NCBI GenBank assembly: GCA_964408365.1
Contig: CAYOZB010000001.1
Location: 2,157 to 66,156 of the forward strand
Reading direction: 5' to 3'
DNA: 64,000 nucleotides
Source: an uncultured Halobacteriales archaeon
Lineage (GTDB): Archaea > Thermoplasmatota > E2 > JACPAO01
A program made the translations under genes and the position numbers. Of this stretch, positions 25,917 to 39,939 are shown piece by piece (the stretch's first letter is position 1; the number at the start of each line of letters is the position of its first letter). Below the pieces are notes generated by a model. That model did not search any database. It was not told the origin of the DNA and worked only from the letters and a program-made list of their open reading frames with translations.

Positions 25917-26083
25917 TCCTGGCTCGAAGGGCATTGAAAAGCGATCAACCACGGGTCCCCCGTACACCGCGGCGGGTCGTGAAGCGCGCAACGCTTACCG
26001 ACCCGCCGCGCAAGTTTGGGGATGCGGCTAAGGGAGCGGCCAGGCCATCTGCTTCAACCCCCCTCGCAGCCGCATGCAGGCTT

Positions 26084-26389
26084 CTACCCGATGCAGCCGC
26101 CGTCGTAGTCGTTCTCGTCGCCGACGTCGGAGGTGACGACGTGGGCTGCCCAACAGGCGCGGTCGGCTCCGATGTTGGTCAACCAGCTGAGCACTGCGAG
26201 TCCAAAGTCTGCGACGCAAAGTGCCTCGTTGACGACAAGGTCGACGGGAGAACCTGACCAGCACGGCGGCTCTCCCGTGGCAGGGACATCGGGCGAATCG
26301 GGGGCATCGTGCGGCGTGTGAATCGGATGTGCCGTAACAGACGGCAAGCCGAGGACGGCCGCTGTTAGAATCGCGATTCCTACCCACAT
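26084..26389 (-). CDS. Small secreted Cys-containing protein (about 101 aa), unknown
   Basis: MWVGIAILTAAVLGLPSVTAHP signal peptide, then a 4-Cys mature region. Only this frame is protein-like in the 25.9-26.5 kb gap. Confidence 0.3.
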   Translation of the reverse strand: MWVGIAILTAAVLGLPSVTAHPIHTPHDAPDSPDVPATGEPPCWSGSPVDLVVNEALCVADFGLAVLSWLTNIGADRACWAAHVVTSDVGDENDYDGGCIG

Positions 26390-26513
26390 CTTTCGATTGG
26401 TGGTTGGTGCCACGGCGCCCCCGGGTTACCATCGGGATATCTAGTCTTCCGCGACCAACCTGGCACCCGGGAGGGAACACATATGAATTCCTTATTGAAC
26501 CTCTGAACGTAGG

Positions 26514-27521
26514 ATGGCAACCGAACCCAGAATTGCCCGGGCAGCTCCGGTTGTGCTGATTCTTGTCGCGGCAGCTCTTCTTTCTGCGGGCTGTCTCGAA
26601 CGCGATGCAGACGGGTTGCCGGGCCAGAATGATCCCCGTCGGGCCGGCAAGGCCGCCGCGGCTGAGCACGTTTTGAGTTCAGCGGATGCGCTAGACATTA
26701 GAGAAGGGGATCTGATGGACATCCACCTCCGTGGCGTCGGATGGGGCCGGCTCGTCATTCGGACTCAGGTTCCGACGACCGTCAACATTACGGTGTCCCA
26801 TTCCGAAATCGATCTGGAGAATCCCACTGGCCCGGCGCAGGGGAAGTACGACGAACGAAATCATACTCAAGTTTACTTCTTCCCTGACGGGGGCGCTCCG
26901 ACCGAGCCCAACTCCTTCCTATTTGAATGGCTCGGGCTCCCTCGCAACGCTTCGAGGGGCTTTGTTGGCGCCGCCCGCGGTTCGCTCGAGGTCACTCCCG
27001 AAAATCCAGGAGTCATCGTCGTCGCCACGTCTGTTCAAGGCTACCGAATTGAGCTCCAAGCCGGCGTGGCATCAAGTTTTCTGTCCCGCGACTGGAAACT
27101 TGCCCCTCACGAGGGGTACGCCTTTGAGGTTCCCACTCCATCCATCACCGCAGCGGTCGATGACGACTTGGCCCGCGTGAGCGTTGTTCGTGATTGGACG
27201 ACGGGAAGCCTCGACCTTAACCCGTCTCTTTTGATCGCTTTCCAATGGACGATAAGCGGACCTGATTCGTTCTCCGCGGGCGTAATCCGCAATGAACTTG
27301 CTATCCGCGAGCAGCGCCCGGCCGATGATCCGCGACGTGGACTGAGCATCGACGCCCCGAACACGCCGATTGTCTCCGTGAGTGGAGGATCGTTTTTCCT
27401 ACGACGGATCGTGGCCGAGCCGACGACGTTGGAGATGTATCGTCATCTTGAGGTCACGACTGTGGGCCCGGACACCCAAATCTACGGCGCCTCGTTCCTT
27501 TCCATACCTCTTTACCCCTAA
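26514..27521 (+). CDS. Secreted lipoprotein, unknown function
   Basis: MATEPRIARAAPVVLILVAAALLSAGC (lipobox-like). Beta-rich 335-aa protein. Confidence 0.45.
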   Translation: MATEPRIARAAPVVLILVAAALLSAGCLERDADGLPGQNDPRRAGKAAAAEHVLSSADALDIREGDLMDIHLRGVGWGRLVIRTQVPTTVNITVSHSEIDLENPTGPAQGKYDERNHTQVYFFPDGGAPTEPNSFLFEWLGLPRNASRGFVGAARGSLEVTPENPGVIVVATSVQGYRIELQAGVASSFLSRDWKLAPHEGYAFEVPTPSITAAVDDDLARVSVVRDWTTGSLDLNPSLLIAFQWTISGPDSFSAGVIRNELAIREQRPADDPRRGLSIDAPNTPIVSVSGGSFFLRRIVAEPTTLEMYRHLEVTTVGPDTQIYGASFLSIPLYP

Positions 27522-27625
27522 AGGGCAACGGCGGGGAATCCCTGGGCGATAAGTAAGAGGCGCGTGCAAGCGGCCCCCGCCCCTCGGGGCAAGGTTTTCA
27601 ACAATAGCGGTCATCGGCACGCCGA

Positions 27626-28711
27626 ATGGGGGGAACTCAGCCAGTGGCCGCGCCCGCCAAGGGGCTCTCGTTGGAGACCCCCGAAGCGGCTCCAACCGAG
27701 GCGCTGCGCGTCGACCTCCCCCCGATGCGGAACGGGCACGGTCGTCGGATCGCGAGCCTGCCCGAACTGCGCGCCCTCACCGACCGATCGATCAGGTCGG
27801 TCGACTTGCACCTCGGGCCTCTTCGACGTGTCCCGACGAGTGTCTGGTTTCCCGAACTCCAACGCGCGTTGCGCCCAGCCGGGTTTGCCCACATCGTGCT
27901 CCAAAACGGGAGTGGTGGCGAAGTCCGTTCGATGATGCGCGAAGCGTCGCACTATTTCGACGCGGAACGCACGGGGTCGAGTTCGTTCCTAGTCACGCGA
28001 CGACCGACCTCGGCGACCGCGGACCACTTCGAAGAGCTCGCCGGACACTACTGGTCCCAGATCCCAGTCCACATCCAGGAACATTTCCTCAACCGCAAAC
28101 TCGCGCTCCTTGGCGAACTTGTGCAACCTCTGGAGGGAACCGTCGGCTTGGACCTGGGTTGCGGCGTGGGACGGTTTGCCGCCGAACTCCGTCGCCGATA
28201 CAATGCCAACGTCGTCGGCGTCGATCCGTCGCGAGCGGCCGTGCGGGAAGCGCGTGAGCACGACGCGTCGGGCCGGTTCGCGAGCGCGGACGCGTTGCGG
28301 CTGCCGTTTGGGGACGAATCGTTCCATTACGCGTACACGATCAATGTCCTTCACCACCTCAAGCGTGGCGAGCAGGAACGCGCGTTGGCGGAGTTGCATC
28401 GCGTCATCAAACCGGGCGGGGTCTTGATCGTGCATGAGATGAACATCCGGAACCCGTTGTTTGCGTGGTACCTGCGCAAACTGTACCCGAAGATCCGTCC
28501 GATCGACAAGGGCGACGAGGAGTTCATCCACCCCGATTCGTGGCCGCTTGCGCCGGGCTGGAAGCGGGAGACGACGCGGTACATGACCTTCGTGCCGGAT
28601 TTCCTTCCACGTGCGTTGCTTGCGCCCGCACGGAAGATCGAAACATTCTTGGAAAACGGCCGCGGCGCGCCGTACTCGGCCCATTACGTGGTCGCATTGC
28701 GCAAGTCGTGA
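27626..28711 (+). CDS. Class I SAM-dependent methyltransferase (start uncertain; catalytic core begins near 27932)
   Basis: Motif I GLDLGCGVGRFAAEL; acidic post-I VVGVDPS; motif IV-like VLIVHEMN. The first ~100 codons of the track ORF may be non-coding. Confidence 0.6.
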   Translation: MGGTQPVAAPAKGLSLETPEAAPTEALRVDLPPMRNGHGRRIASLPELRALTDRSIRSVDLHLGPLRRVPTSVWFPELQRALRPAGFAHIVLQNGSGGEVRSMMREASHYFDAERTGSSSFLVTRRPTSATADHFEELAGHYWSQIPVHIQEHFLNRKLALLGELVQPLEGTVGLDLGCGVGRFAAELRRRYNANVVGVDPSRAAVREAREHDASGRFASADALRLPFGDESFHYAYTINVLHHLKRGEQERALAELHRVIKPGGVLIVHEMNIRNPLFAWYLRKLYPKIRPIDKGDEEFIHPDSWPLAPGWKRETTRYMTFVPDFLPRALLAPARKIETFLENGRGAPYSAHYVVALRKS

Positions 28712-28715
28712 ACCA

Positions 28716-31700
28716 TCAGTCTGCTGCGGCGGAGGCGTTGATGGGCGTTGCGCGGAACGCGGACGGGAACGAAGCGTCGTGCTTCCATGTTTCATCCATG
28801 GCACACGTGCTTGGGACAGTGTTGCGCGCCAGATGAGGCACAAGAGGCGCTGTCAGGAGTTTCAAGCACGTGACATCCGTCGGGTGGGTGAGCACCCAGC
28901 CGCTGTCGGGCGCCCACGGTTTGATCCCGGTGAAGGCGATGTTCGCCGACGGGCAACGGTAGGCGAGCGGGTAGGACGATCCATTACGCTCCAAGACCGC
29001 GTATCCCGGTTCTTGTGGCTCGAGGCGCACGACGTCGCCTAGGTCGAGTTCATCGTCGTTGTCGGGCAGGACGGAGTGACCGAGGGACAATGCGTCGTTG
29101 GTCTGGCAGGATGCGGGGATGAGTTCGCGGATCGGCGCGGCGACTTCGCGACCCACCACGACGAGGGGAACGCCGGCGGCGACCCAGTCGAACAGCATGT
29201 TCCGGACCTCGGTCGACATGCTGCTTGCGTCGTAGGCGTCGCGTCCTCCGTCGATCACGACCATCGAGGGCGGTCCGCGTTCGCCAGGGGACGCGTCGAG
29301 GGCGTCGATGGCGACGACGCGGGCGTTGGTGTAGGCGCGGGCGACGGCTGCTGTGAGGCGGAGGCCCCAATCGTGGGGTCGGTCGGCTTCGGAGAAGGCG
29401 GGATGTGTGCGCGAGGAGCGTTCGTGGGTGATGACGACGATCTCGTCGGTCGGTGCGGGTGTCCGGTTGAGGATGTCGCGGTACGCCTTGGTGGCGAGCA
29501 TGAACTCGTCGCCGAATTCGAGGCTCGGTTCGATGCTGCTTCCTTCGAAGAATTCGTTGAAGGTGGCGACCAAGACGAGGTCGGGTCGGTGACGTAGCAC
29601 GGACTCCCACATGAGGTTGTACGTGGTGCCTTGGTCGGTGTAGGCGGGGATCTTGAAGCCGAAGGATCGGGTTGGGGCGAGGGGGTCTTCGGTCTGGAAG
29701 AATCCGGCGCGGTTGACCGTGTCGTCGTAGGCGGGGGCGATGCCGTACGAGGAGAACCGGTTGTCTCCCTCGGTGGCGGCGGTGAGCCAGATGTTGCGGT
29801 CTTCCCAGCTTTGGAAGATGTCGCCGTAGCTTCGTTCGAAGTTGCCGGTTCCGTCGCGCGGGTGATTGCCCCAGACGAAGGAGGGGCTGTAGATGAACGT
29901 CCCGTTGAAGGCGTCGTTGGCGACGAACCCCTTGACGATCCCGGCTTCGAAACCGGCGTGCTCGTTGAAGGCTTCACCGCTGATGAGGAAGAGCGGCCCC
30001 ATCGTTTCTTCGAGGTTCGCGCGGATCTGGTTCCAGAAGTCCCGGTGGAGATTGAGATGTGCAACGCGCCAGTAGGCGGATTGGTTGATCTGGGTGAAGC
30101 CGTGATATTGGGTGGACGGGGTGCGGTTGCCTTGGTAGAACGCCTGGGATGGGTTTCCCTGGAAGGTGGTGCCGGGCGTGGGGAAGTGGAGCAGGGCATC
30201 GTCGATGGTCGGTTCTAGGCCGGGGTTGTCGAAGGCGGTGCGAAGCGTCTCGATGGGGAAGGATTGGAGAAGGGTCTTCGCGAGGAGTCGCTTGGTCGGT
30301 TCGTCGTAACTGATCGCGGACACGTACGAATCGTAGAAGAAGACGACCGGGCGATCGTCGACGCGGTAGAGGGGCGCGGTGGGGCCAGTTAGGTCGGCGA
30401 GTTGCTTGACGAAGTCCTCGATGGCGATGCGCGTGCCGTTGTCGAGTCGGTAGGCGGCGTGGCCGACGGGTCGGCCGTCGGGTCCGAGGGCGTGTCGTTC
30501 GACTTGGTCGTAGATCTGGTTGAGTTCGATGAGGGGGGCGACGAGGAGTCCTTGCTCGGCGGCCTCTTCCATGAAGACGCGCATCCGTTCGTGTTCGCTG
30601 CTGTGGTAGCTCACGATGGCGACGTCGATGCCGCTCTCGAGCATCATGCGGACGTGGTCGCGGGCGACGCCGCGGGTGTTGGTGTAGTAGCCCATTTCAG
30701 GTGTTTGGCTGACCTTGAGCCAGTTTCCGTAGAGGATGGTCGGGTCGTGGGCGGGGTTGTGCCACCAGAGGTAGTAGAAGGCGGCGATGAGGGGTTCGTC
30801 GGCGGAGGGTTCGGGTCGGATGTCGGGGAGGTCCGGTGCGCCGACGGGGAGGATGGGGATCATGATGACGAGGAGGGTCGCGGCGGTTGCGTAGTAGCGG
30901 CTGTGCATTTCGCGTGACGTGGCGGGCGAGCGGACGGATAGGGCGGGAATCCAGCGTCGGGCGAACCGGTAGCTGAGGAACAGGTTGGCGCTGATGCCGA
31001 TGAGGAAGAGGACGGCGGCGACGTTGTCGGGCAGGGGGAAGATGCGTTCGCGCATCTGGCGCAATGCGGGGATGTGTTCCCGGATTTCTTCGGCGACCGC
31101 GTCGACGGGTTTGCCGAAGGTGGGGAGGGCGATGTCGGGGGGGATGAAGGTGAGGAAGTGCCAGCCGATGAATACGGTCACGCCGGCGAGGAAGGCGGGG
31201 ACGATCCTGGCGGCGCGGCGGGCGGTCTTGCTTTCGAGTTCTCCCAGTCCGAAGAGTAGCAGTAGCGGGGCGACGGCGAGGACCATGTATTGGTCGTTGA
31301 CGACGCGGTTCCAGAAGAGGATCTGGACGCTGGCGGCGAGGGTGATGAGGAGCGGGGCGGCGGGGGAGCGCACGCGGGGTGCAAGGAGTGCCAAAAGGAG
31401 CAGGCTGGCCGACATGAGGGCGAAGCTTGCGATCTCGATGCTTTCGGCGGAGGCGGCTTCGGCGGGGACGAGTCGCCAGATGCTGTGGCCTTGGACGGGG
31501 CGGGCGAGATGGAAGAGGACGATCTGTTGGAAGAATCCGCGGGGAGTGGCGATGAAGAACGGGAGGCACACGGCGAGGATGGTGGCGCACGCGGCGCCGA
31601 ACGCCCGACCGACGGGTCGCCAGCCGCGTTCGTAGAGGAAGAACGAAGCCAGCGGCAGGGCGAGGAGGATGGGGAAGGGTTTGATGAGCGTCGCGAGTCC

Positions 31701-32462
31701 GACGAACAGCCCGGCTTCGAGGGCCCGGCCTTGCTGGAACCGTAAGGCGCCGAAGAGGAAGAGGGCGATGAGGGCAGGATCCGTCATGCCCCAGACGGGT
31801 CCGATGATGATGAGGAAGGGGTTGAACAGCAGCAGGGTACGGACGCGTCGACCGACTTCGGGGGTCTTGCCGAGGTGTTTGGCCCAGGCTTCGCCGACGA
31901 AGGCGACGGCGAGCGTGCCGAGGACCATCGGGAGTTTGAGGAGGATCCGTTCGAGGAAGGGCGGGACGTCGAGGAGGATCTCGGGCATGTACGTGAATGC
32001 CATCGCCAAAAGCGGCAAGGGCGGGTAGGCGTACCATTGGGGGTGGGCGTCGTTGATGCCGAGGAACGTGTAGAACGGTTGGTCTTCGGCGACCGCGTAG
32101 GGGGTCTTGCCTTCCCAGAAGTCGCGGACGCTGTTCTCGAAGACGAACCCGTCCCAGTCGTGGATGAAGAGGGCGGCGAGGAGCACGTACATCGCGGCCG
32201 CGATGAGGTAGTGGGTTCGCCGCCGGACGGGGGAATCCGGTTCGGTGGGAGCGGGGTCTGGAACGTCGGTCGTAGTGGATTCCCTCGGGCCGGAACAAAC
32301 GGGCGGAACGTGGGGCCTATAAATTAGATTCCGGACGGACCACGGCCACGGTAGGGCGGCGGATACGTCAGGAAACGCCCCGGAGCCAGCGGAGGGCTCG
32401 CTGGTTCCAGGCGACCGTGTGCGTGGTGCCGGTGCGTCCGGCGATCGACGCCAGGTGGGCAA
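28716..32462 (-). CDS. Giant membrane protein: N-terminal polytopic GT-C-fold (PMT/ArnT/DUF2029-like) glycosyltransferase-like domain fused to a GH99-like (endo-alpha-mannosidase-like) domain and a ~250-aa C-terminal domain of unknown function
   Basis: About 12 TM helices at the N-terminus with loop motifs similar to GT-C enzymes. Middle: AAFYYLWWHNP...TPEMGYYTNTRGVARDHVRMMLESGIDVAIVSYHS ... LVLVATFNEFFEGSSIEP, matching the YYPWY...YdS.d...H...aGId...SW...SFNEWhEGTqIEP pattern of glycoside hydrolase family 99 (from memory). The true start is ambiguous: TTG at 32462 would overlap the upstream epimerase by about 95 nt, the next ATG is at 32192, and a TATA-like TTTATAGG lies in between (see findings). 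Confidence 0.6.
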   Translation of the reverse strand: MPTWRRSPDAPAPRTRSPGTSEPSAGSGAFPDVSAALPWPWSVRNLIYRPHVPPVCSGPRESTTTDVPDPAPTEPDSPVRRRTHYLIAAAMYVLLAALFIHDWDGFVFENSVRDFWEGKTPYAVAEDQPFYTFLGINDAHPQWYAYPPLPLLAMAFTYMPEILLDVPPFLERILLKLPMVLGTLAVAFVGEAWAKHLGKTPEVGRRVRTLLLFNPFLIIIGPVWGMTDPALIALFLFGALRFQQGRALEAGLFVGLATLIKPFPILLALPLASFFLYERGWRPVGRAFGAACATILAVCLPFFIATPRGFFQQIVLFHLARPVQGHSIWRLVPAEAASAESIEIASFALMSASLLLLALLAPRVRSPAAPLLITLAASVQILFWNRVVNDQYMVLAVAPLLLLFGLGELESKTARRAARIVPAFLAGVTVFIGWHFLTFIPPDIALPTFGKPVDAVAEEIREHIPALRQMRERIFPLPDNVAAVLFLIGISANLFLSYRFARRWIPALSVRSPATSREMHSRYYATAATLLVIMIPILPVGAPDLPDIRPEPSADEPLIAAFYYLWWHNPAHDPTILYGNWLKVSQTPEMGYYTNTRGVARDHVRMMLESGIDVAIVSYHSSEHERMRVFMEEAAEQGLLVAPLIELNQIYDQVERHALGPDGRPVGHAAYRLDNGTRIAIEDFVKQLADLTGPTAPLYRVDDRPVVFFYDSYVSAISYDEPTKRLLAKTLLQSFPIETLRTAFDNPGLEPTIDDALLHFPTPGTTFQGNPSQAFYQGNRTPSTQYHGFTQINQSAYWRVAHLNLHRDFWNQIRANLEETMGPLFLISGEAFNEHAGFEAGIVKGFVANDAFNGTFIYSPSFVWGNHPRDGTGNFERSYGDIFQSWEDRNIWLTAATEGDNRFSSYGIAPAYDDTVNRAGFFQTEDPLAPTRSFGFKIPAYTDQGTTYNLMWESVLRHRPDLVLVATFNEFFEGSSIEPSLEFGDEFMLATKAYRDILNRTPAPTDEIVVITHERSSRTHPAFSEADRPHDWGLRLTAAVARAYTNARVVAIDALDASPGERGPPSMVVIDGGRDAYDASSMSTEVRNMLFDWVAAGVPLVVVGREVAAPIRELIPASCQTNDALSLGHSVLPDNDDELDLGDVVRLEPQEPGYAVLERNGSSYPLAYRCPSANIAFTGIKPWAPDSGWVLTHPTDVTCLKLLTAPLVPHLARNTVPSTCAMDETWKHDASFPSAFRATPINASAAAD

Positions 32463-33390
32463 TGTACCAGTCGTAACTGTCGACCAGGGTCTCGCTGTTG
32501 GAGCGTCGGGGATGCCAGCCGAGCTTCGCTGTGGCTTTGGTGATCTCGACGTAGGATTCCCGGTCCATGGTACCGTAGTGCCAACGGGTCAAGGGGGACA
32601 GCCGGAGCTTGTCGAGCACGAACAAGGCGAACTTGCTGAGGCGGCGGGGCAGGGCCGTGACACGCGAAGCCGTGCCCGCGTGGTCGATCACGGTCTGAAG
32701 ATCCTGCTTGATGGAGGCAAAGCGGTCGGCGCCCAGGTTGAAGTCGTCGTTTCCGGCGCTCGTCTGCGCGGCGAGGATGATCCCGTCGACAAGGTCCTCG
32801 ACATCGAGGAGTTGGTAGCGGTTGTTTCCCTTGCCGATGGTGTAGATGCGTTTGCCGCGTCGGATCCAGTCGAACAGGATCTCGAACACGCCGAGTCGTC
32901 CGGGGCCGAGGAACGTCTTGCAACGCAAGATGCCCACGTGGAGCCCTTTCGCGCGGTACTCGCGGCACATTTCTTCACCGCGGACCTTCGAGGCACCGTA
33001 CGGTCCGATGGGGATCATGGGAGACGTCTCGAGGATCGGATGGTACTTGTGCAAACCATACACGGCAGTGCTGCTCGTGAACACGAACCCTTTCACGCGC
33101 GCCGCGACGGCGGCATCGAGCACGTTTCGCATGCCTTCGACGTTGACGGAGAAAATGAACTTGCGAGAACGGTGGATCGGAAGAGCCGCTGCTGCGTGGA
33201 CGACGTAGTCGGCTCCGGCGACGGCTCGTTCGACGGCCGCCTTGTCGCGGATGTCCACACGGACGTAGTCCACGCCCTCGACCACGAAGGCCGGTTCCGG
33301 ATCGACGATGTCGATGCTTTTGGCCTTCACGCCCGCCTTGACCATGCGCGTCAACACGGCGTGCCCGAGGAACCCGGCGCCGCCCGTCAT
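32368..33390 (-). CDS. NAD-dependent epimerase/dehydratase (UDP-sugar 4-epimerase-like, extended SDR)
   Basis: VMTGGAGFLGHAV Rossmann motif and YGASK catalytic Y-x3-K; about 340 aa. Start at M94 of the track ORF. Confidence 0.75.
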   Translation of the reverse strand: MTGGAGFLGHAVLTRMVKAGVKAKSIDIVDPEPAFVVEGVDYVRVDIRDKAAVERAVAGADYVVHAAAALPIHRSRKFIFSVNVEGMRNVLDAAVAARVKGFVFTSSTAVYGLHKYHPILETSPMIPIGPYGASKVRGEEMCREYRAKGLHVGILRCKTFLGPGRLGVFEILFDWIRRGKRIYTIGKGNNRYQLLDVEDLVDGIILAAQTSAGNDDFNLGADRFASIKQDLQTVIDHAGTASRVTALPRRLSKFALFVLDKLRLSPLTRWHYGTMDRESYVEITKATAKLGWHPRRSNSETLVDSYDWYIAHLASIAGRTGTTHTVAWNQRALRWLRGVS

Positions 33391-33539
33391 CACCCAGGTC
33401 GTGCCGTTTCGCGGGCTCGGCCGGGGGGTGTCGTTCTGCACGGTCTCGCGTACCGCAGGCTGCGGAAAAAGGCTGCTACGACGGAACCCGCGGCGGCCAG
33501 GGCAAACGTAAAGCGTTTGGGACGAGTGCCGCGCCGCGA

Positions 33540-35249
33540 ATGGGAACCGACAATCCAACGCCGGGGCCCGTTGCGCCGTCGCGGTCCGCGTGGATTTGGC
33601 GAATGGTTTTTGCGTCGCGACCGCTCGAACGTCGCGACCTCTGGATCGCCGCATCACTTTTCCTTGCATCGTTGGGATTGCTCGTGTCCGTCCGCGCTCG
33701 GACCCTCAACACCACGGACAGTTTCCTGTTCGCGCTGGCGACGGAGGATTATGACTTGACGCGCGCGCATCCCCACCCGCCCGGATACCCCGTCTTCATC
33801 GCATTGGCCCGCATCTTCCTGGTTTTCACACAGGAGGCGAACGCGGCGCTCGTGGGGGTCAGTGTGCTGTTCGGTGCCGTGTCGATCGCCCTGCTGTACC
33901 TGCTGGTTCGCGAGTTCGCATCGGTCGCCGCCGCTGCGCTTGCGGCCATTTTGTTCGCTGCGTCGCCGAACCTCCTATACAACGGGGCGCTGGCACTTTC
34001 GTACACGGCGGAAGGCGCAACCTCGATCGCCGTGGCTTGGGCGGCCGTCCGGACCCGTCAAGGTCGGTTCCCATTTTGGGCTCTTGGGGTGCTCTTCGCG
34101 GTGAGCCTCGGTCTGCGCCAATCCTCGTTGTTTTTCTTGACGCCGATCGTCCTTTGGACTCTTGTGGACCGACTCCGCGACCGGACCCGGCTTCGCCAAG
34201 CCATCCAAGGGCTCGCGTCGGGTGCGGTGCCGACGTTCCTCCTCTGGTTCGTCCCCATGTTGATGTTCGGAGGCGGGTTCCGCGTCTGGCTCGAGACGAC
34301 GCAACTGCAGAGTCGCGTCGTTGTCTTCGCGTACACGGTCTTCAACTCCGGGTGGCCGGCCGTCTTCGACAATGTGAGCCGTCTGCGGATCTTCACAGAG
34401 GCGGATTGGATCCTTGTTTGGGCCGCCGTACCCGTGCTTTTGCTGGCAGTGTTTTTGTCGCGAAGAAACACGGGCGGGGCCAGGATCTCACCAACCGTAA
34501 AGCAGGCGAGCACGGCGCTGTTGATCTGGGCCTTGCCGAGCCTGCTTTTTTACACATTCATTTTCAGCGGCTCCCACAACGGACCGCGCGGCTACATTCT
34601 CGTCGTTGAACCAGCGTTCTTTGCCGCGCTTGCGGTGCTCACTCAGTGGCTGTACGACGGAGTGGAAATTTCTTTCAAGCGGCCGAGGGCGAGCGTTTCG
34701 ATGGGGTCCGCGGTGCTGGTGTTGCTCTTGCTGTTGACGATCCCCTTCGGGACCGCCTCCGCCGCTCTGCTCAAGAAGGAAGTCCGAGACCACGACGTCT
34801 GGTCCGACGCATGGCTCGGTCTCAAACAGGAATACGCCCCCAACGAGACGGCCCTCTTCGCGAGCCACAGTTGGGGATTCGCAAAATGGTACTTTCCCGA
34901 ATACGTGGTCTGGAACTTCATGCCCGTGACACCAGACCCGGCGGGCACTCCTCTCCATTTCATCATGGAATCCCGCCATCACGTCGACGACGTCGCCCTC
35001 TACGACAGCTGGGTCCGCTCCGCCTGGAACACCGAACACCCCATCCCCCCCGGCATCCGCACCATCATCATCCTTGATTTCCAACTCGCCGGAGAGAACA
35101 ACGGCATCCGCGCGATCCGCCCCGAGATCAAGGTCGACGAAGCGCACCTGGCCTCCGGCTGGCGCCTGCTCGTCATGCATCCCGATCCGGAACACCCCAC
35201 CGTCGAATCGCTCGTCTACCTCGACGACCGGTCACCGCAACCAAGATAG
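33540..35249 (+). CDS. GT-C-fold membrane glycosyltransferase-like protein (PMT/ArnT-like first-loop acidic motif)
   Basis: About 11 TM helices. First loop TEDYDLTRAHPHPPGYPVF resembles the D-E ... HPPL loop of GT39/GT83 enzymes. Soluble C-terminal domain of about 150 aa. Confidence 0.55.
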   Translation: MGTDNPTPGPVAPSRSAWIWRMVFASRPLERRDLWIAASLFLASLGLLVSVRARTLNTTDSFLFALATEDYDLTRAHPHPPGYPVFIALARIFLVFTQEANAALVGVSVLFGAVSIALLYLLVREFASVAAAALAAILFAASPNLLYNGALALSYTAEGATSIAVAWAAVRTRQGRFPFWALGVLFAVSLGLRQSSLFFLTPIVLWTLVDRLRDRTRLRQAIQGLASGAVPTFLLWFVPMLMFGGGFRVWLETTQLQSRVVVFAYTVFNSGWPAVFDNVSRLRIFTEADWILVWAAVPVLLLAVFLSRRNTGGARISPTVKQASTALLIWALPSLLFYTFIFSGSHNGPRGYILVVEPAFFAALAVLTQWLYDGVEISFKRPRASVSMGSAVLVLLLLLTIPFGTASAALLKKEVRDHDVWSDAWLGLKQEYAPNETALFASHSWGFAKWYFPEYVVWNFMPVTPDPAGTPLHFIMESRHHVDDVALYDSWVRSAWNTEHPIPPGIRTIIILDFQLAGENNGIRAIRPEIKVDEAHLASGWRLLVMHPDPEHPTVESLVYLDDRSPQPR

Positions 35250-35261
35250 GAGCGGGTCACG

Positions 35262-36800
35262 GTGGCACGTTCGATGGAAGCCCGCGCACGGTTGTTGCAG
35301 TGGGCACCTTACTTGTTACTCACCCTCTTGGCGTTCGCGTTGAAGCTGCCATTCGCCGACATCCCCCCGTATGGCGACGAGGGCGCGTTCTACTACACTT
35401 CACGTGAACTCGATTCGTTTCCGCCCAATGTCCACGACCTGTACCTGCCCGCGGAGTCGGAACTTTCGCCCAACGTTCTCTACCGGCCGGTTCCCTTGTT
35501 CTGGTATCGACCGGTCCATTACCTCACGATGTGGCCCGCGGCACAGTTTGGGTTCGACGCATACCGAGTCGCTTCGATCGCATTGACGTCGACGATACCG
35601 GCGCTCGCCGCTTCCGTATTGGTGTCGTTCGGAACGCGACGCTCCTATGCGGTCGGCGCTGGCGTTGTCCTCGCGACGGTACCGTACTTTGTCGTCTGGG
35701 GCGTCCTCACACTGCCGGACACGCTGCTGACGATGTGGTTCCTCGCGGGCCTCCTCGCGTACCGGCTCGGACGTCCGTGGCTTATGGGCGCGGCCTTCCT
35801 CAGCGCGGCTTGGACGAAAGAGATCGCCGTGATCGGGATCGCCGCTCTCCTTGTCTTCACGGTTGCGACCCGGATCCGCTCGGGCGCGCCGCGAACGTGG
35901 CCGCTCGAGGTCTCGCGGCGCGAGTTCGTTCTCGCTCTATGCGTGCCCCTTGGCCTCGTGCCGATGATGATCGCGCTGTGGAAAGGCGGCGCACCTCCCG
36001 GCGGCGGAGGCGCCCCAGGCTGGGGTTGGTTGTTCGAGGGTTTGTTCGGCGTCGTCTGGCTGCTTCCCTTGGTGCTCCTGGCGCTTGTCTACCGCAACAC
36101 GCGGCTGCTCGCCGGTTTCGCCCTCGTGTACCCGGTGTTCTACGTGTTGTACGGGCAGATTTTGGGCCGCGCCGTGAACATCTGGTACCTCTACGTTCCC
36201 GCGACGCTGTCCATCGTGGCCGCCGCCGCAGCGTTGGACGCATGGACCTCCGCGGTCGATGGGACTCGTCACAAGCGGGTGCCAAAGGTCGTCGCCGCTA
36301 TCGTGGTCGCAATGTTCCTCGCAATGGCCCTCCTCCCGACCGGCGCCGCCAAGGGTGCTTTGATCCGGCCTTTCACCCGTGATCCCGCGGACAGTCTACG
36401 CGATGCGTTGCAATATGAGTCGGCGCGAGACGCCGATCTGCGCGACGCGTTGGCGGCGCTTCAACTGGGTCCGGGGCGGCGGGTGTTCGTGGTGGACCTG
36501 TATGGATCCTACGTGCTGCATCCCGTATCCACGTCGGGCGCCGAGGTGTGGTGGGGGGAAACCCGGACGGTGGAACTGTTTCACCAACGGTTGGATCCGT
36601 GGTCGGTGACCTTGGAGCAGCGTGCGACCCACACGTTGGTGTCGAAGAACGACAACGCCTTGAACCGCGCCGTGCGCGACGTGTACGCAGATTGTGTCAC
36701 ATTCGCGAGCGAACGGTTTGCCGTCATCGAAGGGTCAGGATGCCCAGATCGGAAGGACGTGTTGGCCAATCGGTACGCGGAGCTCACTGTTTCGGAGTGA
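35262..36800 (+). CDS. GT-C-fold membrane glycosyltransferase-like protein (second paralog)
   Basis: Polytopic. First loop PPYGDEGAFYY (DE motif). C-terminal soluble domain. Follows the previous gene by 12 nt. Confidence 0.5.
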   Translation: MARSMEARARLLQWAPYLLLTLLAFALKLPFADIPPYGDEGAFYYTSRELDSFPPNVHDLYLPAESELSPNVLYRPVPLFWYRPVHYLTMWPAAQFGFDAYRVASIALTSTIPALAASVLVSFGTRRSYAVGAGVVLATVPYFVVWGVLTLPDTLLTMWFLAGLLAYRLGRPWLMGAAFLSAAWTKEIAVIGIAALLVFTVATRIRSGAPRTWPLEVSRREFVLALCVPLGLVPMMIALWKGGAPPGGGGAPGWGWLFEGLFGVVWLLPLVLLALVYRNTRLLAGFALVYPVFYVLYGQILGRAVNIWYLYVPATLSIVAAAAALDAWTSAVDGTRHKRVPKVVAAIVVAMFLAMALLPTGAAKGALIRPFTRDPADSLRDALQYESARDADLRDALAALQLGPGRRVFVVDLYGSYVLHPVSTSGAEVWWGETRTVELFHQRLDPWSVTLEQRATHTLVSKNDNALNRAVRDVYADCVTFASERFAVIEGSGCPDRKDVLANRYAELTVSE

Positions 36801-37959
36801 CCGCGGCGACGAACATCGCCGTCGACGGGGTGGGCTTCGGGCCCAGTGTCGTGGGCGTGGGGCGAGGCGTCGGCTTCGAGCTGCGGTCCTTCCATCCGAG
36901 GCTCGGGGTCTCGACCAACACGTAGAGGAGCCACGTCGCGAGCATGACCGGGGCGGCCAGGATCAGTTGGAACATGACGAACCCGTGGTCGAGCGTCCAC
37001 GGCATCTTCGAGGCGATGAACGTCATGACGGGGAAGTGCATGAGGTAGAGGCTGTAGCTGCGTTCTCCGAGAGCGTCCGTGAACCGGTTGCCGAGCGCGC
37101 GGCTGACGACGCGTTCCGGGTTTGCGGCGAGGAAGATGGCCAATGCGAAACCGATTGCGGGGCCGGCGCGAACGATAAAAGTGCTGGGCAAGGGGGCCAG
37201 GGCGCTCCACAGGCCCGGTGGCGGTGCGGCCAAGAGCAGCGGCGCGACGATAAGGATGGGTACGGAGGCCCAAAGCCAGGGACGGGCGGATTTACTGATG
37301 GTGTAGTTGCCGACGTATAGCCGCGCGGCCGTGATGCCGAGGGCGAAGTGGAACAGGTAGCCGGGCAGTTGGCTGAGCGCCCAGAAGTTGTCCGCGCCGG
37401 GGTTGTTCATGTCGATGGTCAACACGTTCCAGGTCATCGAGACCGCGTAGGCGGCGGCGAGTCCGACGATGGGGTGGGTCCGCAAGAGGAACCAGAGAAG
37501 GACCGGCAGGACGACGTAGAATTGGAACTCGACCGCGAGGGACCAGTAGACGGGGTTGATGGTCCACACGAGACCATCGACGAAGTTGTGCGCGTAGGCA
37601 CCGTGAAGCATGAGGCTGGTGGGGCGGGTCCATAGGTAGTTCATGGTGCCGGCCGCGAACAGGGCGAAGAGGAGCGACGCGTAGTAGGGAGGCGCGATGC
37701 GGATCAAGCGTCGGCGCAGGTAATTGGCCCAATACCCGAAGCTTTGTCCCTCGTTCTTGCGCAGCAACGGGGAAGCGAGAAGGAAGGCGCTCAGCACGAA
37801 GAACAGGTCGACGCCGATCCAGCCGTATCGGTAGACCCCGTCCACTCCAGCGAAAACGCTGTGCTTGGCGACGTACAGCTGCCACGCGTGGTAGACAGCG
37901 ACGTAAAGCGCGGCTAGGCCACGCATGCCTGTCAGCGCCGGCAGTCGCCCCACGAACAT
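36784..37959 (-). CDS. Acyltransferase family 3 (OatA-like O-acetyltransferase) membrane protein
   Basis: GMRGLAALYVAVYHA ... GVDLFFVLSAFLL, the characteristic acyl_transf_3 N-terminal motifs; about 10 TM. A TATA-like TTAAAT lies about 22 nt upstream of the ATG. Confidence 0.7.
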   Translation of the reverse strand: MFVGRLPALTGMRGLAALYVAVYHAWQLYVAKHSVFAGVDGVYRYGWIGVDLFFVLSAFLLASPLLRKNEGQSFGYWANYLRRRLIRIAPPYYASLLFALFAAGTMNYLWTRPTSLMLHGAYAHNFVDGLVWTINPVYWSLAVEFQFYVVLPVLLWFLLRTHPIVGLAAAYAVSMTWNVLTIDMNNPGADNFWALSQLPGYLFHFALGITAARLYVGNYTISKSARPWLWASVPILIVAPLLLAAPPPGLWSALAPLPSTFIVRAGPAIGFALAIFLAANPERVVSRALGNRFTDALGERSYSLYLMHFPVMTFIASKMPWTLDHGFVMFQLILAAPVMLATWLLYVLVETPSLGWKDRSSKPTPRPTPTTLGPKPTPSTAMFVAAVTPKQ

Positions 37960-38147: not shown

Positions 38148-38996
38148 ATGACCAAGATAGTCCTTGACGCGGAGGCCTTCAAAGCCTTGGCAAGCGACAC
38201 GCGCCTCCAGATCCTCAAGGCGCTCGACGCTCGACCCCTGACGGTCTCGGAACTGTCCCGGCTCCTGAACCTCAACAAAGCGACCGTCTTCGAGCACCTC
38301 AAGCAACTCATGGCCGCCGACTTGGCCAAGCGCGAGGACGACCCGGCCCGCAAATGGGTCTACTACCACCTCACGTGGAAAGGCAAGAACATCCTCCATC
38401 CCGAGAACGCACAGATCTTCCTGATGCTCGGCATGGCCGCCTTGGGCCTGGGCGGCGCCGTGCTCCAGACCGCCTACCTCGCCCAACTTTGGCTCCAAGG
38501 GAACAACTCGCTCTCATCCCCCTCGTCTGGGCCGTCGGCGGACCTCGTTTCGGACATGTCCGAAAGCCGGCTCGTCGAGGATTCCAACGACAACGCGGCG
38601 CAGCACGAACCGCAAGCCGCCCAAGGTTCCAGTACCGCCGATCCGGCTCCCGCCGGAGCCCCCGCATCCTCCACGTCCGCCTCGGGCGCCGGGGGCCAAG
38701 CAGACAAAGCGGGTGGCGGCGGCAACGAGGACACGGTCGCCGAAGCCGACGTGATCCCCGTCAACGCCGACGAATCCGCCATGGCCGACACGGCGGGTCC
38801 GGCCTGGTGGGAACCCTTGACGAGCAACTACTTCCTCACCCTGATGGGGGTCCTCGTGTTCTTGGGACTCCTCACGCTCATCATCTGGACCCTGTACGGC
38901 AGCCAACGCAACGAGCGCCTCGCGATGCGCACGAAGATCGGAACGTTGCCCTTGGACGTCAACCGCGAAGAGGCCGCCCTCGGCCAGCCGGCGTAG
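38148..38996 (+). CDS. Membrane-tethered ArsR-family winged-helix regulator (wHTH - TM - acidic Ser/Ala-rich extracytoplasmic linker - TM)
   Basis: LASDTRLQILKALDARPLTVSELSRLLNLNKATVFEHLKQL is a textbook ArsR HTH. Two hydrophobic helices (IFLMLGMAALGLGGAVL; FLTLMGVLVFLGLLTLIIWTLY) flank a low-complexity segment. Confidence 0.55.
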   Translation: MTKIVLDAEAFKALASDTRLQILKALDARPLTVSELSRLLNLNKATVFEHLKQLMAADLAKREDDPARKWVYYHLTWKGKNILHPENAQIFLMLGMAALGLGGAVLQTAYLAQLWLQGNNSLSSPSSGPSADLVSDMSESRLVEDSNDNAAQHEPQAAQGSSTADPAPAGAPASSTSASGAGGQADKAGGGGNEDTVAEADVIPVNADESAMADTAGPAWWEPLTSNYFLTLMGVLVFLGLLTLIIWTLYGSQRNERLAMRTKIGTLPLDVNREEAALGQPA

Positions 38997-39066: not shown

Positions 39067-39939
39067 CTAGGGTTCGAATGCTGCGGCTTGTTTGAGAACC
39101 TCGGCGCGCATTTTCTGCGGGCGGGCGTCCTTCGCCAAGCGCTTCTCCAGGTCCGTGAGGTTGTTCAGGAAGGAGAACCGTTTGGCTGCTTTGGCGCATT
39201 CGGGGTTCCAGTCCTTTTGCTGGTTCTTGCCGAGCAGGCGGTTGAGGTTCTTCCAATCCTTCAGCCCGGTGCCTAGTTTTTTGAGAATCAAGGGTGGATC
39301 CAACGACTGGCGGACGCTCCAGAGTTTGGCGGCGGCGAGGAACCGGGCCGGGTCGGCCTTGAAGGGCAGGGAAGCGTATTGGATGACATCGTAGTAGTCG
39401 CGATCGCTTGTCCGTTGCTGGAGGGCTCGGAGCTTTTCCGAAATGGCCTCCACCATCGGAAGGCTTGGCACGTCAACCGGTGTGAAAGGCAGCGATGGGA
39501 AGTAGGATTGTGGGATCTGGGGGGTGGGCCGGGGGTTGAGGAAGGGGGCTTCCCTGTAACTGACGTCGATCGAGAAGTGGTCTTCCGCGTGCTCGTGTGT
39601 GTAGTGAACGTCGCAAGCCCAACTGCCTTCGTCCGTCGTGTGGGCGTTGTCGATCGTAAACGTGATCCCGTCGAACGGCTGCGCAAACGCTTTTCGAAAC
39701 AAGGCCTCGGGATCTTTTTGGATCCCGTTCTGAGTGAAATCGAGGTCTTCGCTGATCCGGCCGAGTCCACCCACAATCATTTTCCGAAGGTACGTTCCGC
39801 CTTTGAACACCAAGAGACGCAGCAATCCGTGCTGGTGTAAGCGCTGAAGGGCATAGGTCAGGACGACGTCTTGTTGGGCGACCTCGACGTCTGTCTGGGC
39901 CTGGTCGGCAAACTTGTTGAGAACCGGGTACGGAATCAA
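39067..39939 (-). CDS. abiEii: AbiEii-family nucleotidyltransferase toxin (DUF1814)
   Basis: VFKGGTYLRK ... GRISEDLDFT (GG-x-A/Y-L and R-x-S-E-D-x-D-F motifs of the AbiEii/AbiGii NTase). Overlaps the upstream gene by 4 nt. Confidence 0.7.
   Translation of the reverse strand: MIPYPVLNKFADQAQTDVEVAQQDVVLTYALQRLHQHGLLRLLVFKGGTYLRKMIVGGLGRISEDLDFTQNGIQKDPEALFRKAFAQPFDGITFTIDNAHTTDEGSWACDVHYTHEHAEDHFSIDVSYREAPFLNPRPTPQIPQSYFPSLPFTPVDVPSLPMVEAISEKLRALQQRTSDRDYYDVIQYASLPFKADPARFLAAAKLWSVRQSLDPPLILKKLGTGLKDWKNLNRLLGKNQQKDWNPECAKAAKRFSFLNNLTDLEKRLAKDARPQKMRAEVLKQAAAFEP

Follow-up and report, generated by a model that had tools for sequence, protein, structure and literature searches.

A conserved Thermoplasmatota gene cluster carrying a rare fusion of a GT-C membrane domain with a GH99-like barrel, and its possible role in surface-glycan assembly

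The DNA analysed here (hereafter, the window) comprises 64,000 nt, positions 2,157-66,156 of the forward strand of contig CAYOZB010000001.1 (assembly GCA_964408365.1), from a soil organism recorded as an uncultured Halobacteriales archaeon (GTDB lineage Archaea; Thermoplasmatota; E2; JACPAO01). A preliminary description of the locus at window positions 27626-37959 had listed six open reading frames, all of which are present in that order, at those coordinates and on those strands, with coding-type GC3 values of 0.77-0.86. The genes and their features are the following:

27626..28711, + strand: SAM-dependent methyltransferase (MT), 361 aa (Pfam Methyltransf_11/25, E ~1e-23)
28716..32462, - strand: large fusion protein (BIG), 1248 codons, with GT-C membrane domain, GH99-like barrel and GH42-B-like domain
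30843..32225, - strand: GT-C domain of BIG, aa ~80-540 (Pfam GT87, PDB profile match, Foldseek, hydropathy/charge)
32148..32162, - strand: HDWDG motif of BIG, in the predicted first extracytoplasmic loop (translation checked)
29508..30800, - strand: GH99-like (beta/alpha)8 barrel of BIG, aa ~555-985 (Pfam, profile, Foldseek; translation checked)
29541..29558, - strand: NEFFEG motif of BIG, aligning to the GH99 catalytic NEWHEG (translation checked)
28719..29510, - strand: C-terminal alpha/beta domain of BIG, aa 985-1248 (domain model and Foldseek)
32368..33441, - strand: extended-SDR NAD-dependent sugar epimerase/dehydratase-family enzyme (EPI), ~340-357 aa (Pfam Epimerase, E 6e-40)
33540..35249, + strand: PMT_2/TMEM260-like GT-C, 569 aa (Pfam PMT_2)
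35262..36800, + strand: third GT-C, 512 aa (hhalign to the BIG family)
36784..37959, - strand: acyltransferase-3 family integral membrane acyltransferase, 391 aa (Pfam Acyl_transf_3, E 2.3e-26, full length)

Pfam, profile and structure evidence agrees with the domain calls made earlier for these genes. The class I MTase domain of MT covers residues ~150-290, with no domain assigned to the 150 aa before it, and no TM helix is predicted in the protein, which is thus probably cytoplasmic. EPI lies immediately upstream of BIG in the same direction, and its closest matches in the PDB come from GalE-type epimerases and SDRs (E 1e-21 to 1e-15); the start first given for it, 33669, was replaced after start codon analysis by a probable start at 33441 (GTG) or 33390 (ATG). 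The product of 33540-35249 scores 29.3 bits with PMT_2 (cut-off 26.1) and 24.5 bits with the TMEM260-like model, its family profile matches human TMEM260 (9rql, E 3e-4), and it has an HPPGYP motif and a soluble C-terminal domain of ~160 aa. The ORF at 35262-36800 has no Pfam match, but its sequence relationships identify it as a GT-C: its family aligns with the membrane domain of the BIG family across 250 columns (hhalign, 93.9% probability, E 1.6e-7) and weakly with Pmt1 and PMT. The protein itself, in which ~10 TM helices are predicted, TM1 is followed by YGDE..H and the C-terminal ~150 aa form a soluble domain, matches the NCBIfam surface-glycopolymer family AZOBR_p60025 (E 3.6e-5). Three GT-Cs do occur at the locus, as had been proposed, but they are not close paralogs, one being TMEM260/PMT_2-like and the other two remotely related. 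To call their number unusual was an overstatement: loci with several GT-Cs are usual where actinobacteria make arabinan/mannan, and relatives of the cluster carry up to four or five GT-Cs, one close relative only two, with 0-3 copies of the third one.

The cluster is conserved across Thermoplasmatota, and MT, BIG, EPI, the TMEM260-like GT-C, extra GT-Cs and acyltransferase-3 are kept in at least 10 related contigs. Orthologues of MT adjoin BIG in loci L003, L004, L006, L009, L018, L019 and L020 and in the P0004/P0005 contigs, and those of EPI in L002, L003, L007, L013, L018, L019, L020 and the same two contigs, whereas the TMEM260-like GT-C and the acyltransferase-3 gene are each found in L002, L004, L006, L007, L018, L019 and L020. 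A Methyltransf_11 gene also occurs near a distant form of BIG fused to a GT2 domain.

The sole canonical start of BIG that retains TM1 is TTG 32462, from which the gene overlaps the 3′ end of the epimerase gene by 95 nt; P0001, the gene call in the database, begins at ATG 32192 and gives 1158 aa. The fusion of GT-C and GH99-like domains, described beforehand as unusual, is genuine, and it is conserved as well as rare. Of 1.84 billion cluster representatives searched with the fusion, 32 matched at E<1e-30; in the strong matches the barrel lies at residue ~480-540 of proteins of 900-1200 aa, and a barrel of this subfamily hardly ever occurs by itself. Independent assemblies contribute 68 database clusters of homologues, mostly ~1100 aa long and with the architecture of BIG, a single ORF of this type is seen in 15 genome loci, and an assembly of an independent read set encodes an identical protein. 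The fusion is distributed among Thermoplasmatota and, in a form without the last domain, CPR bacteria. Our literature search found no publication describing it.

The membrane domain of BIG matches Pfam GT87 at aa 144-379 (26.3 bits, cut-off 25) and PIG-M weakly, its best match among PDB profiles is GPI mannosyltransferase I (E 1.5e-10), and with Foldseek the BIG model aligns with 9wno (GPI-MT-I with Dol-P-Man; TM 0.66). Hydropathy and charge bias predict 13 TM helices with the N-terminus inside and the C-terminus outside. In 28 homologues, the inside loops contain 0.13-0.28 K+R per residue and the outside loops 0.00-0.11, with the single exception of a six-residue outside loop (0.17) that bears an invariant Lys. 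Sequons are absent from the membrane domain and number 0-9 per homologue in the ectodomain (2-9 in 27 of the 28), and the four conserved Cys of the family are confined to the last domain. The charge distribution, the Cys and the sequons together place the barrel and the C-terminal domain outside the cell, so that the prediction agrees with the earlier claim of a GH99-like domain on the active-site side of the GT-C. The HDWDG sequence, which would be the acidic catalytic motif of the GT-C, is kept in 27 of the 28 aligned homologues (the last one is gapped at those columns) and in all CPR and GT2-fused forms. The GT-C loop residues HDWD, D138, K171, Q223, H228, R231, N299, Q301, Y302 and H345 are the same in archaea and in CPR bacteria, whose proteins have an overall identity of ~28%.

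For the barrel, the single-sequence match to Pfam Glyco_hydro_99 (41.9 bits, cut-off 33) aligns only the 39 residues 943-981, while the profile of 28 BIG homologues reaches E 4e-15 against the solved GH99 enzymes 4acz and 4ad1, with three collinear stretches of alignment across the barrel. The AlphaFold model of BIG (pLDDT 81.7) aligns with GH99 structures at TM 0.6-0.66, and the barrel has an inserted segment of ~150 aa that the solved enzymes lack. When NEFFEG is aligned to the NEWHEG of 4acz/4ad1, both catalytic glutamates are kept, and neither they nor the N and G of the motif vary among the 28 homologues, the CPR forms and the GT2-fused forms. Between archaea and CPR bacteria, WW476-477, E556, Y768, Y822, D824 and N879-E880-x-x-E883-G884 are likewise identical, and E888 is so in all forms but the GT2-fused P0066 (Gln). 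The canonical GH99 motif has been defined as EW[H/G]E (PMC11025385), versus E[F/W]FE in the BIG family; of the GH99 H[I/L]EPY, the LIELN of BIG keeps the Glu alone, and the residue matching the W/Y of the -2 subsite is aligned with uncertainty.

The C-terminal domain was previously listed as unknown, and its predicted structure (pLDDT 85.8) now allows its assignment to a class I glutamine-amidotransferase-like fold, as in domain B of GH42. Foldseek matches of the isolated domain are GATase1 enzymes, GH42 and Op5Man5 (E ~3e-3, prob 0.9-1.0). The domain is present in the archaeal forms of BIG.

Regarding the donor sugar, the CPR homologues of BIG are flanked by phosphomannomutase (ManB), ManC, GtrA and GT2 genes, and P0061-P0066 join a DPMS-type GT2, GtrA_DPMS_TM, GT87 and GH99 in one chain. 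These neighbours and fusions, together with GPI-MT-I as the best solved relative, point to a polyprenyl-phosphate hexose, probably mannose. The 64 kb of the window contain neither a Dol-P-Man synthase nor a flippase nor a UbiA gene, an observation that we count against the proposal that follows.

The analysis establishes which genes are present, their folds, how far motifs are conserved, the topology as predicted, the synteny of the cluster and how rare the fusion is; from this we infer a donor sugar, an acceptor, a hydrolytic activity and an order of steps. We propose, with about even confidence, that this is a surface-glycan cluster of Thermoplasmatota in which BIG combines a hexose GT-C with an active, endo-acting retaining glycosidase. 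The cell-surface glycan would be assembled and decorated on the outside of the cytoplasmic membrane from polyprenyl/dolichyl-phosphate-linked sugars, and all the context fits the general reading suggested beforehand, in which a glycan attached to lipid or protein is built or modified there from lipid-linked donors. EPI may adjust the donor sugar in the cytoplasm, the TMEM260/PMT_2-like GT-C would initiate or branch the glycan on protein or lipid, and the third GT-C would extend it, with MT and acyltransferase-3 as its likely decorating enzymes. For the GT87/PIG-M-like domain of BIG, the most likely donor is a dolichyl-phosphate-hexose, probably that of mannose, and the most likely acceptor a glycan bound to lipid or protein. 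The last 700 residues of BIG would lie outside the cell, as a barrel with the catalytic glutamate pair followed by the GH42-domain-B-like accessory domain. The barrel would act on the very alpha-linked glycan being extended by the GT-C domain, cutting or remodelling it to control chain length, to trim it or to release it, in a role parallel to that of the glycanases accompanying many polysaccharide synthases. What makes this coupled transfer and trimming plausible is one feature, the retention of the GH99 catalytic glutamates.

The alternative that survives best, although we consider it unlikely, is an elaborated archaeal form of the extracytoplasmic pentofuranose systems, where BIG transfers ribo-, xylo- or arabinofuranose instead of mannose and the barrel acts on a furanoside polymer. 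In eight more distant archaeal relatives the cluster includes a polyprenyl-phosphate phosphoribosyltransferase-like UbiA gene immediately adjoining MT and BIG, which would fit pentofuranose and counts against a mannose donor; pentofuranose donors may thus be involved besides mannose. UbiA beside MT/BIG is seen in L002, L003, L004, L006, L007, L009, L013, L018 and the P0005 contig, and it is co-directional with them wherever the strand was recorded (L004, L006, L007, L018, P0005 contig). The four UbiA genes that were scanned (L004, L006, L007, L013) reach 202-229 bits on the decaprenyl-phosphate phosphoribosyltransferase model (cut-off 234). The L018 cluster adds an LPG_synthase_TM membrane protein, a possible flippase, and GT87 includes the arabinofuranosyltransferase AftC. 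The GalE-like SDR beside a GT-C matches ORF13, which acts from undP-Ribf to undP-Xylf (PMC11127046). However, the cluster UbiA is missing from the window and from its closest relatives (L019, L020, P0004 contig), the GT-C loop residues of the archaeal forms are those of the CPR and GT2-fused forms, with their mannose/hexose context, and a pentofuranose donor could equally feed other GT-Cs of the cluster.

It is also unlikely, and slightly more so, that the barrel is a non-hydrolytic module, a lectin-like former glycosidase that binds the acceptor or measures the chain while holding the growing glycan for the GT-C site. C-terminal ectodomains of GT-Cs usually bind, and non-catalytic ones are common; the CBM of the GT136 enzyme ORF12, for instance, binds the acceptor and is dispensable. 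This precedent, the changes in the canonical EWHE and HIEPY signatures (E-F-F-E and LIELN in BIG) and the low confidence at the NEFFEG loop (pLDDT <50 in the whole-protein model) favour a binding role and are counted against our proposal. Binding-only derivatives of glycosidases, however, typically lack the catalytic acids, whereas both Glu, the preceding Asn and ~15 further barrel residues with polar or aromatic side chains show full or nearly full identity among archaeal, CPR and GT2-fused forms.

Much less probable is a transglycosylase or “ligase”, which would cleave the lipid-linked oligomer made by the GT-C and move it en bloc to an acceptor, be it protein, lipid or wall. The fusion does hold synthase and cutter on one membrane face, and GH99 enzymes are retaining, which makes transglycosylation chemically possible, but to our knowledge it is the physiological role of no GH99. 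GH76 relatives act on alpha-mannans by hydrolysis as well as by transglycosylation (PMC11233589). Finally, a chance GH99 match or a mis-assembly of two genes, suggested by the short Pfam alignment, is refuted by the independent assemblies and genome loci, the collinear profile match and the structural agreement with GH99.

Among known systems, the GT87/GT50 GT-C mannosyltransferases that depend on polyprenyl- or dolichyl-phosphate-mannose (mycobacterial PimE-type; PIG-M/Gpi14) share with BIG the multi-pass GT-C fold and an acidic motif in the first outward loop, and GPI-MT-I, including its Dol-P-Man complex, is its best solved relative by sequence and fold; in contrast, the GT87 score of BIG is marginal, and no characterised member of these families has a catalytic-looking ectodomain of 700 residues. 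The GH99 endo-alpha-1,2-mannosidases/-mannanases (human MANEA, Bacteroides BtGH99 and BxGH99) share the barrel and the motifs FYY.WW, YDSY, P.YDDT and N-E-x-x-E-G-x-x-I-E-P with both catalytic Glu. BIG differs from them in its ~14-16% identity in structural alignments, its insertion and altered signatures, and its tether to a membrane glycosyltransferase in a biosynthetic, rather than catabolic or Golgi-processing, context. The ectodomain model also aligns over 730-800 columns with GH42/GH164/GH35-type proteins (barrel, domain B and small beta domain), namely GH42 beta-galactosidases, the GH164 beta-mannosidase and the I. album beta-1,2-glucosyltransferase; the likeness of the last domain to the GATase1-like domain B is weak, and the barrel sequence resembles GH99, not clan GH-A families.

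Extracytoplasmic pentofuranose systems combine a polyprenyl phosphoribose synthase, a flippase and a GT136 GT-C with an auxiliary SDR epimerase, and “more elaborate systems” with several GT-Cs have been mentioned (Kelly et al. 2024, PMC11127046). With them and with the mycobacterial decaprenyl-phospho-arabinose/Emb-Aft pathway, the cluster would share lipid-phosphate donors made inside and used outside by GT-Cs, and it has a GalE-like SDR gene beside a GT-C; the UbiA-bearing clusters of distant archaeal relatives resemble the bacterial systems. The window, however, has neither UbiA nor MATE flippase, its GT-Cs belong to other families (GT87-like, TMEM260/PMT_2-like), and the systems described are bacterial and have no glycosidase-like ectodomain. 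In Haloferax volcanii, AglD/AglR/AglS place mannose on dolichol phosphate inside, flip it and move it outside to a protein-bound glycan, and AglP is a SAM methyltransferase modifying the N-glycan (PMC3871713), which as a pathway would offer an archaeal precedent for outward Dol-P-Man transfer and glycan methylation, although without a glycosidase domain. The mycobacterial LamH is an endo-alpha-mannanase that cleaves GT-C-made lipomannan/lipoarabinomannan and releases capsular polymer (PMC11233589). Despite belonging to GH76 rather than GH99, and being a separate protein unfused to the synthase, LamH may be regarded as a functional analogue of the mechanism proposed for BIG, where a surface glycan would be built outside by GT-Cs and then cut.

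All six open reading frames that the preliminary description had placed in this glycan-modification locus were recovered, with the same limits and strands. Their GC3 of 0.77-0.86 is at the level of real genes, and the window has a GC content of 63%.

Genes of the cluster (window coordinates, strand, product, basis)
27626-28711, +, class I SAM methyltransferase (Pfam)
28716-32462, -, large fusion protein (Pfam GT87 at aa 144-379, weak PIG-M, and Glyco_hydro_99 at aa 943-981)
32368-33669, -, NAD-dependent epimerase/dehydratase (Pfam)
33540-35249, +, GT-C enzyme with PMT_2 and TMEM260-like matches, 569 aa (Pfam)
35262-36800, +, third GT-C, 512 aa (without Pfam match)
36784-37959, -, Acyl_transf_3 protein (Pfam PF01757)

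The acyltransferase matches its model along the full length (E 2.3e-26, profile positions 3-325 of 326), and the epimerase is an extended SDR with a TGGAGFLG motif, whose closest solved relatives are GalE-type epimerases. For the large fusion protein there are two canonical starts, ATG 32192, which gives the database call P0001, and TTG 32462. The ATG start cuts the first transmembrane helix (TM1), which public gene calls shorten likewise, and the TTG is the sole canonical start that spares it, preserving an RRR-TM1 segment common to all longer homologues. With the TTG as start, the fusion gene shares 95 nt (32368-32462) with the 3' end of the epimerase gene; in relatives the fusion gene starts at an ATG about 14 nt past the epimerase stop. 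With reservations, we regard TTG 32462 as the more likely true start.

Thirteen transmembrane helices are predicted by hydropathy in the large fusion protein, and the density of Lys plus Arg in 28 homologues alternates between the inside loops (0.13-0.28 per residue) and the outside ones (0.00-0.11), with the exception of one six-residue outside loop (0.17) that bears an invariant Lys. This alternation places the N-terminus in the cytoplasm, and the first loop and the C-terminal 700 residues outside, so the GH99-like domain is predicted to be extracytoplasmic like the GT-C loop, as had been proposed. The sequence HDWDG, which directly follows TM1 and opens the first outside loop, occurs in 27 of the 28 aligned homologues (the other one is gapped here) and in all the CPR forms, and is the acidic motif of GT-C enzymes. 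The family profile matches GPI mannosyltransferase I (E 1.5e-10), and the AlphaFold model (pLDDT 81.7, pTM 0.75) retrieves with Foldseek the complex of this same enzyme with Dol-P-Man (9wno; E 2.8e-6, TM 0.66). The GT87 model PF09594 gives a marginal match (26.3 bits vs a cut-off of 25, E 7e-6), and the models for PIG-M, ALG3, ALG6/8 and PIG-U also match members of the family, weakly. Helix count, acidic motif, and profile and fold homology all agree with the assignment of the N-terminal domain to GT-C.

The second domain matches the Pfam GH99 model PF16317 with 41.9 bits (cut-off 33), in an aligned part that covers aa 943-981 only. This short match is not a chance one: three collinear segments that together cover the barrel (FYY.WW..P; F.YDSY; P.YDDT...NEffEGssiEP) align the family profile with two Bacteroides GH99 structures (4acz, 4ad1; E 4e-15), and some 40 GH99 chains can be superposed on the model (TM 0.6-0.66). 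The catalytic motif of GH99 is EW[H/G]E, with two glutamates (PMC11025385), and its counterpart in the fusion protein is NEFFEG (window 29541-29558), where a Phe takes the H/G position; the Asn, both Glu (E880 and E883 of P0001) and the Gly are invariant positions, and some homologues have Trp in place of the first Phe. In an alignment made partly by eye, neither the H[I/L]EPY motif nor the W/Y189 residue of GH99 was found in the barrel: the counterpart of the former is P-L-I-E-L-N, of which the Glu alone is kept, and is invariant, and the 'TWWG' segment with W/Y189, of the -2 subsite, aligns to S-Y-H. Of the initial reading of a GH99-type hydrolase, homology to GH99 holds; the catalytic Glu pair is retained, but the barrel is not a canonical GH99, with EF/WFE and PLIELN at the diagnostic positions. 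Judged from its sequence, the barrel would be a divergent member of the GH99 superfamily with the catalytic pair intact. One chain would thus carry an outward GT-C site and an outward GH99-like site with intact catalytic residues, according to the predicted topology.

Whole-protein Foldseek searches gave as best matches GH42 beta-galactosidases, a GH164 beta-mannosidase and a GH35-like transferase, in alignments of 730-800 columns that span the barrel plus the part that follows. In the whole-protein model, pLDDT falls below 50 exactly at the NEFFEG loop (P0001 residues 879-885, window 29538-29558), within a barrel that is mostly above 85. When residues 985-1248 were modelled alone (pLDDT 85.8), the matches were weak (E ~3e-3, probability 0.9-1.0) but consistent, pointing to the class I glutamine-amidotransferase fold and to domain B, its equivalent in GH42 and in Op5Man5; in GH42, domain B mediates oligomerisation. 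The four conserved cysteines of the ectodomain all lie within this last domain, and N-glycosylation sequons are confined to the ectodomain (0-9, and 2-9 in 27 of the 28 homologues), with none in the membrane domain, which fits an extracellular location.

The locus had also been described as carrying three GT-C paralogs. The count of three GT-C enzymes is correct, but they are not recent paralogues. The 569-aa protein scores 29.3 bits with PF13231 (cut-off 26.1) and 24.5 with PF11028 (cut-off 24.2), and its family profile matches human TMEM260 (9rql) at E 3e-4 through a common HPPGYP segment, which places it with enzymes of the PMT_2/TMEM260 kind. For the 512-aa protein, large-database searches yielded two close relatives only, whether the query was its sequence alone or a profile of 11 sequences, and its family was assembled from tblastn matches in the fetched loci. 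The profile of these 11 relatives aligned by hhalign with the GT-C domain of the large fusion family (93.9%, E 1.6e-7, 250 columns), and this remote profile comparison is what identifies the protein as a probable GT-C. It has about 10 transmembrane helices and a nearly invariant YGDE..H motif (D39-E40) past the first of them. Single-sequence hhalign of the two smaller proteins against the large family was weak (41% and 3% probability), and in the PDB the 512-aa profile found a marginal match to Pmt1 alone (E 0.014). The number of copies of this third GT-C varies: none in L019, a locus whose large fusion protein is 86% identical, one in the window and in the related locus L020, and two to three in four other loci, L002 (2754-7184), L004 (3104-6268), L009 and L018 (1917-6934).

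A word-indexed search with the large fusion protein returned 68 clusters, mostly of about 1100 aa and with the same architecture, and an exhaustive HMMER search with the ectodomain in 1.84 billion representatives found 32 matches at E<1e-30 and 66 at E<1e-10. Nearly all the strong matches are proteins of 900-1200 aa whose barrel begins at residue ~480-540, so this barrel subfamily essentially exists only as a fusion. A genome scan found relatives in nine Thermoplasmatota/Thermoplasmata MAGs, two of them labelled 'Halobacteriales', and more distant ones (~28% identity) in five CPR bacteria (Moraniibacteriota, Levyibacteriota, Peribacteria, Saccharibacteria and one further CPR). A haloarchaeal origin of the window, suggested by its 63% GC, acidic proteins and HVO_* HTH matches, was rejected: when named homologues and genome loci are taken together, nearly all come from Thermoplasmatota/Thermoplasmata MAGs, with three assemblies labelled 'Halobacteriales'; the contig name 'JX_forest' of one close relative suggests forest soil. 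The CPR proteins (~930-945 aa) stop about 30 residues past NEFFEG and are devoid of the last domain, and the compared residues of the GT-C loop and of the barrel are the same or nearly the same in archaeal and CPR forms. One locus (L006:2974-5811 and 13201-17331) shows a second, shorter paralogue (945 aa, 30% identity to aa 81-635 of the large fusion protein), and two tandem sulfatase/phosphodiesterase-family genes just past its large gene; sulfatase-like genes were searched for in the window and not found. We found no description of this fusion in the open-access literature searched. The domain superfamilies are already familiar, and so is a cluster that combines lipid-linked donors, GT-Cs, acyltransferase-3, epimerase and methyltransferase; what is new is that a GT-C and a glycosidase-like ectodomain form a conserved fusion, notable for its restriction to Thermoplasmatota and CPR bacteria, lineages with largely uncharacterised surface glycans.

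The gene tables of further contigs and tblastn searches of the fetched loci with the window proteins delineate a conserved archaeal cluster composed of the methyltransferase, the large fusion protein, the epimerase, the TMEM260-like GT-C, zero to three third GT-Cs and the acyltransferase-3. The window itself is archaeal, as it carries NurA/HerA, Mre11/Rad50, FEN1 and HVO-type HTH regulators. Its genes for DNA-end resection (12114-23130) are split into NurA (12114-13094) with HerA (12943-14664) and Mre11 (19524-20660) with Rad50 (20158-23130); genes for an M28 peptidase and for a Na+/H+ exchanger with TrkA_C domains lie between the two pairs. A 1.7-kb segment (25917-27625) that separates the TldD/PmbA pair from the methyltransferase has a GC3 of 0.62-0.63, compared with 0.77-0.86 in the neighbour genes, and encloses an ORF (26514-27521) whose product has a signal/lipobox-like N-terminus and matches no family; in L019 and L020 the segment is absent and the methyltransferase directly follows TldD, and it looks like a recent insertion. 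An AbiEii toxin/AbiEi antitoxin pair (39067-40754) sits between an ArsR-type regulator (38148-38996) and the gene of a 429-aa membrane protein (40926-42215), and is an insertion in this genome, since its two flanking genes adjoin in L020. Two tRNA-Leu(GAG) genes (43073-43164 and 49995-50084) occur on the same strand 6.8 kb apart, with ~83% identity across the aligned 130 nt, and enclose an FHA/HTH protein, a Ser/Thr protein kinase and two ~550-aa proteins without assignment.

The two outward sites of the large fusion protein are conserved together across a very large evolutionary distance, inside a biosynthetic cluster. GT87 enzymes typically form alpha-1,2-mannosidic bonds, and GH99 enzymes cleave such bonds by a mechanism that requires the 2-OH of mannose, so the GT-C domain and the barrel could act on the same linkage. 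The GT-C domain would extend an alpha-linked, probably mannose-containing glycan on a lipid or a protein, and the barrel would then cut or remodel this glycan endo-wise, for trimming, chain-length control or release. Each half has a parallel: outward transfer from Dol-P-Man by AglS of Haloferax (PMC3871713), and processing of GT-C-made lipomannan by the GH76 mannanase LamH (PMC11233589). A main rival to trimming is that the barrel is a binding module, as the GT-C ectodomains known so far have been; its invariant catalytic Glu pair speaks against this. Another is that the barrel is a transglycosylase.

The third main rival concerns the donor, which could be a pentofuranose instead of a hexose. 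Around the fusion gene, CPR genomes carry phosphomannomutase, GtrA, a small Ig-like (Big_13) protein, and ManC or a GT2, in compact modules.

CPR modules with phosphomannomutase, GtrA, Big_13 and ManC/GT2
L010:6486-13808
L011:9380-13530
L012:8604-14197

Homologues P0061-P0066 join a DPMS-type GT2, GtrA_DPMS_TM, GT87 and GH99 in one chain of 1200-1300 aa. The gene for P0061 (1211 aa) is found at 8001-11636 of locus L017 (5891-13787), with a PMT_2 GT-C, a B12-binding radical-SAM enzyme and a Methyltransf_11 methyltransferase as neighbours; the contig also bears an archaeal-type TYW2/Trm5. From these Rosetta-stone and context arguments we infer a polyprenyl-phosphate hexose donor, most simply mannose. 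For the pentofuranose speaks the parts list of relatives, where a putative UbiA-type phosphoribose synthase accompanies a GalE-like SDR epimerase and a GT-C. The UbiA-family gene stands beside the methyltransferase and the large fusion gene in eight more distant relatives, co-directional wherever the strand was recorded.

UbiA-family genes of the eight loci
L002:7392-8258
L003:397-1248
L004:7767-8690
L006:7768-8712
L007:7940-8818
L009:3082-3936
L013:8979-9818
L018:6978-7913

Four of these genes were scanned and reached 202-229 bits with the NCBI model of decaprenyl-phosphate phosphoribosyltransferase (cut-off 234), which suggests an archaeal lipid-linked pentofuranose pathway in these relatives. 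A fusion of UbiA with the large protein in L013/L005 was rejected, since its long ORF extends upstream out of frame, as is typical where GC is high. A possible flippase is the LPG_synthase_TM membrane protein of L018 (8864-9904), whose gene stands between those for the methyltransferase and the large fusion protein. Against the pentofuranose, no UbiA gene occurs in the cluster of the window or of its nearest relatives (L019, L020 and the contig of P0004, with large fusion proteins 74-90% identical), and tblastn for UbiA in the window gave nothing better than E 0.8. A hexose donor is favoured for the large fusion protein, because the archaeal GT-C shares its active-site residues with the forms found in a mannose context, and a pentofuranose donor is possible for the other GT-Cs of the relatives. 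A catabolic role in scavenging external mannan was rejected, as the barrel of every strong homologue is tethered to a transferase and stands among biosynthetic neighbours.

A bolder reading, which we consider improbable when taken as a whole, is that the fusion of Thermoplasmatota and CPR bacteria works as a self-contained make-and-cut machine. Its membrane domain would polymerise an alpha-linked mannan-like chain on an outside lipid carrier, and its tethered retaining barrel would release the chain or transfer it en bloc to lipid or protein, an oligosaccharyltransferase-independent attachment, with an unrecognised archaeal polyprenyl-phosphate pentofuranose pathway accompanying most archaeal members. 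If the ectodomain were an active endo-glycosidase, it would reveal a new design principle, in which a single polypeptide both makes and cleaves a glycan at one membrane face, and the family would offer a handle on the surface glycans made by uncultured members of Thermoplasmatota and CPR.

GT-C enzymes build surface glycans of great importance, among them N-glycans, GPI anchors, and the arabinan and mannan of mycobacteria. Mycobacteria use lipid-linked pentofuranose donors, which have lately been described for Gram-negative O antigens too, and the synteny reported here suggests their use by archaea as well. The UbiA-bearing archaeal relatives share a parts list of UbiA-family protein, GalE-like SDR and GT-C with the mycobacterial arabinan pathway and with the three-component pentofuranose systems, extracytoplasmic and recently described (PMC11127046). 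Like these systems, the window has an auxiliary GalE-like SDR epimerase. The systems encode a UbiA-family polyprenyl phosphoribose synthase together with the GT-C; the window has no UbiA-like gene, and eight more distant relatives have one. The systems also have a MATE flippase, a family without match among the window ORFs scanned, and a GT-C of family GT136, whereas the GT-Cs of the window are GT87-like and PMT_2-like.
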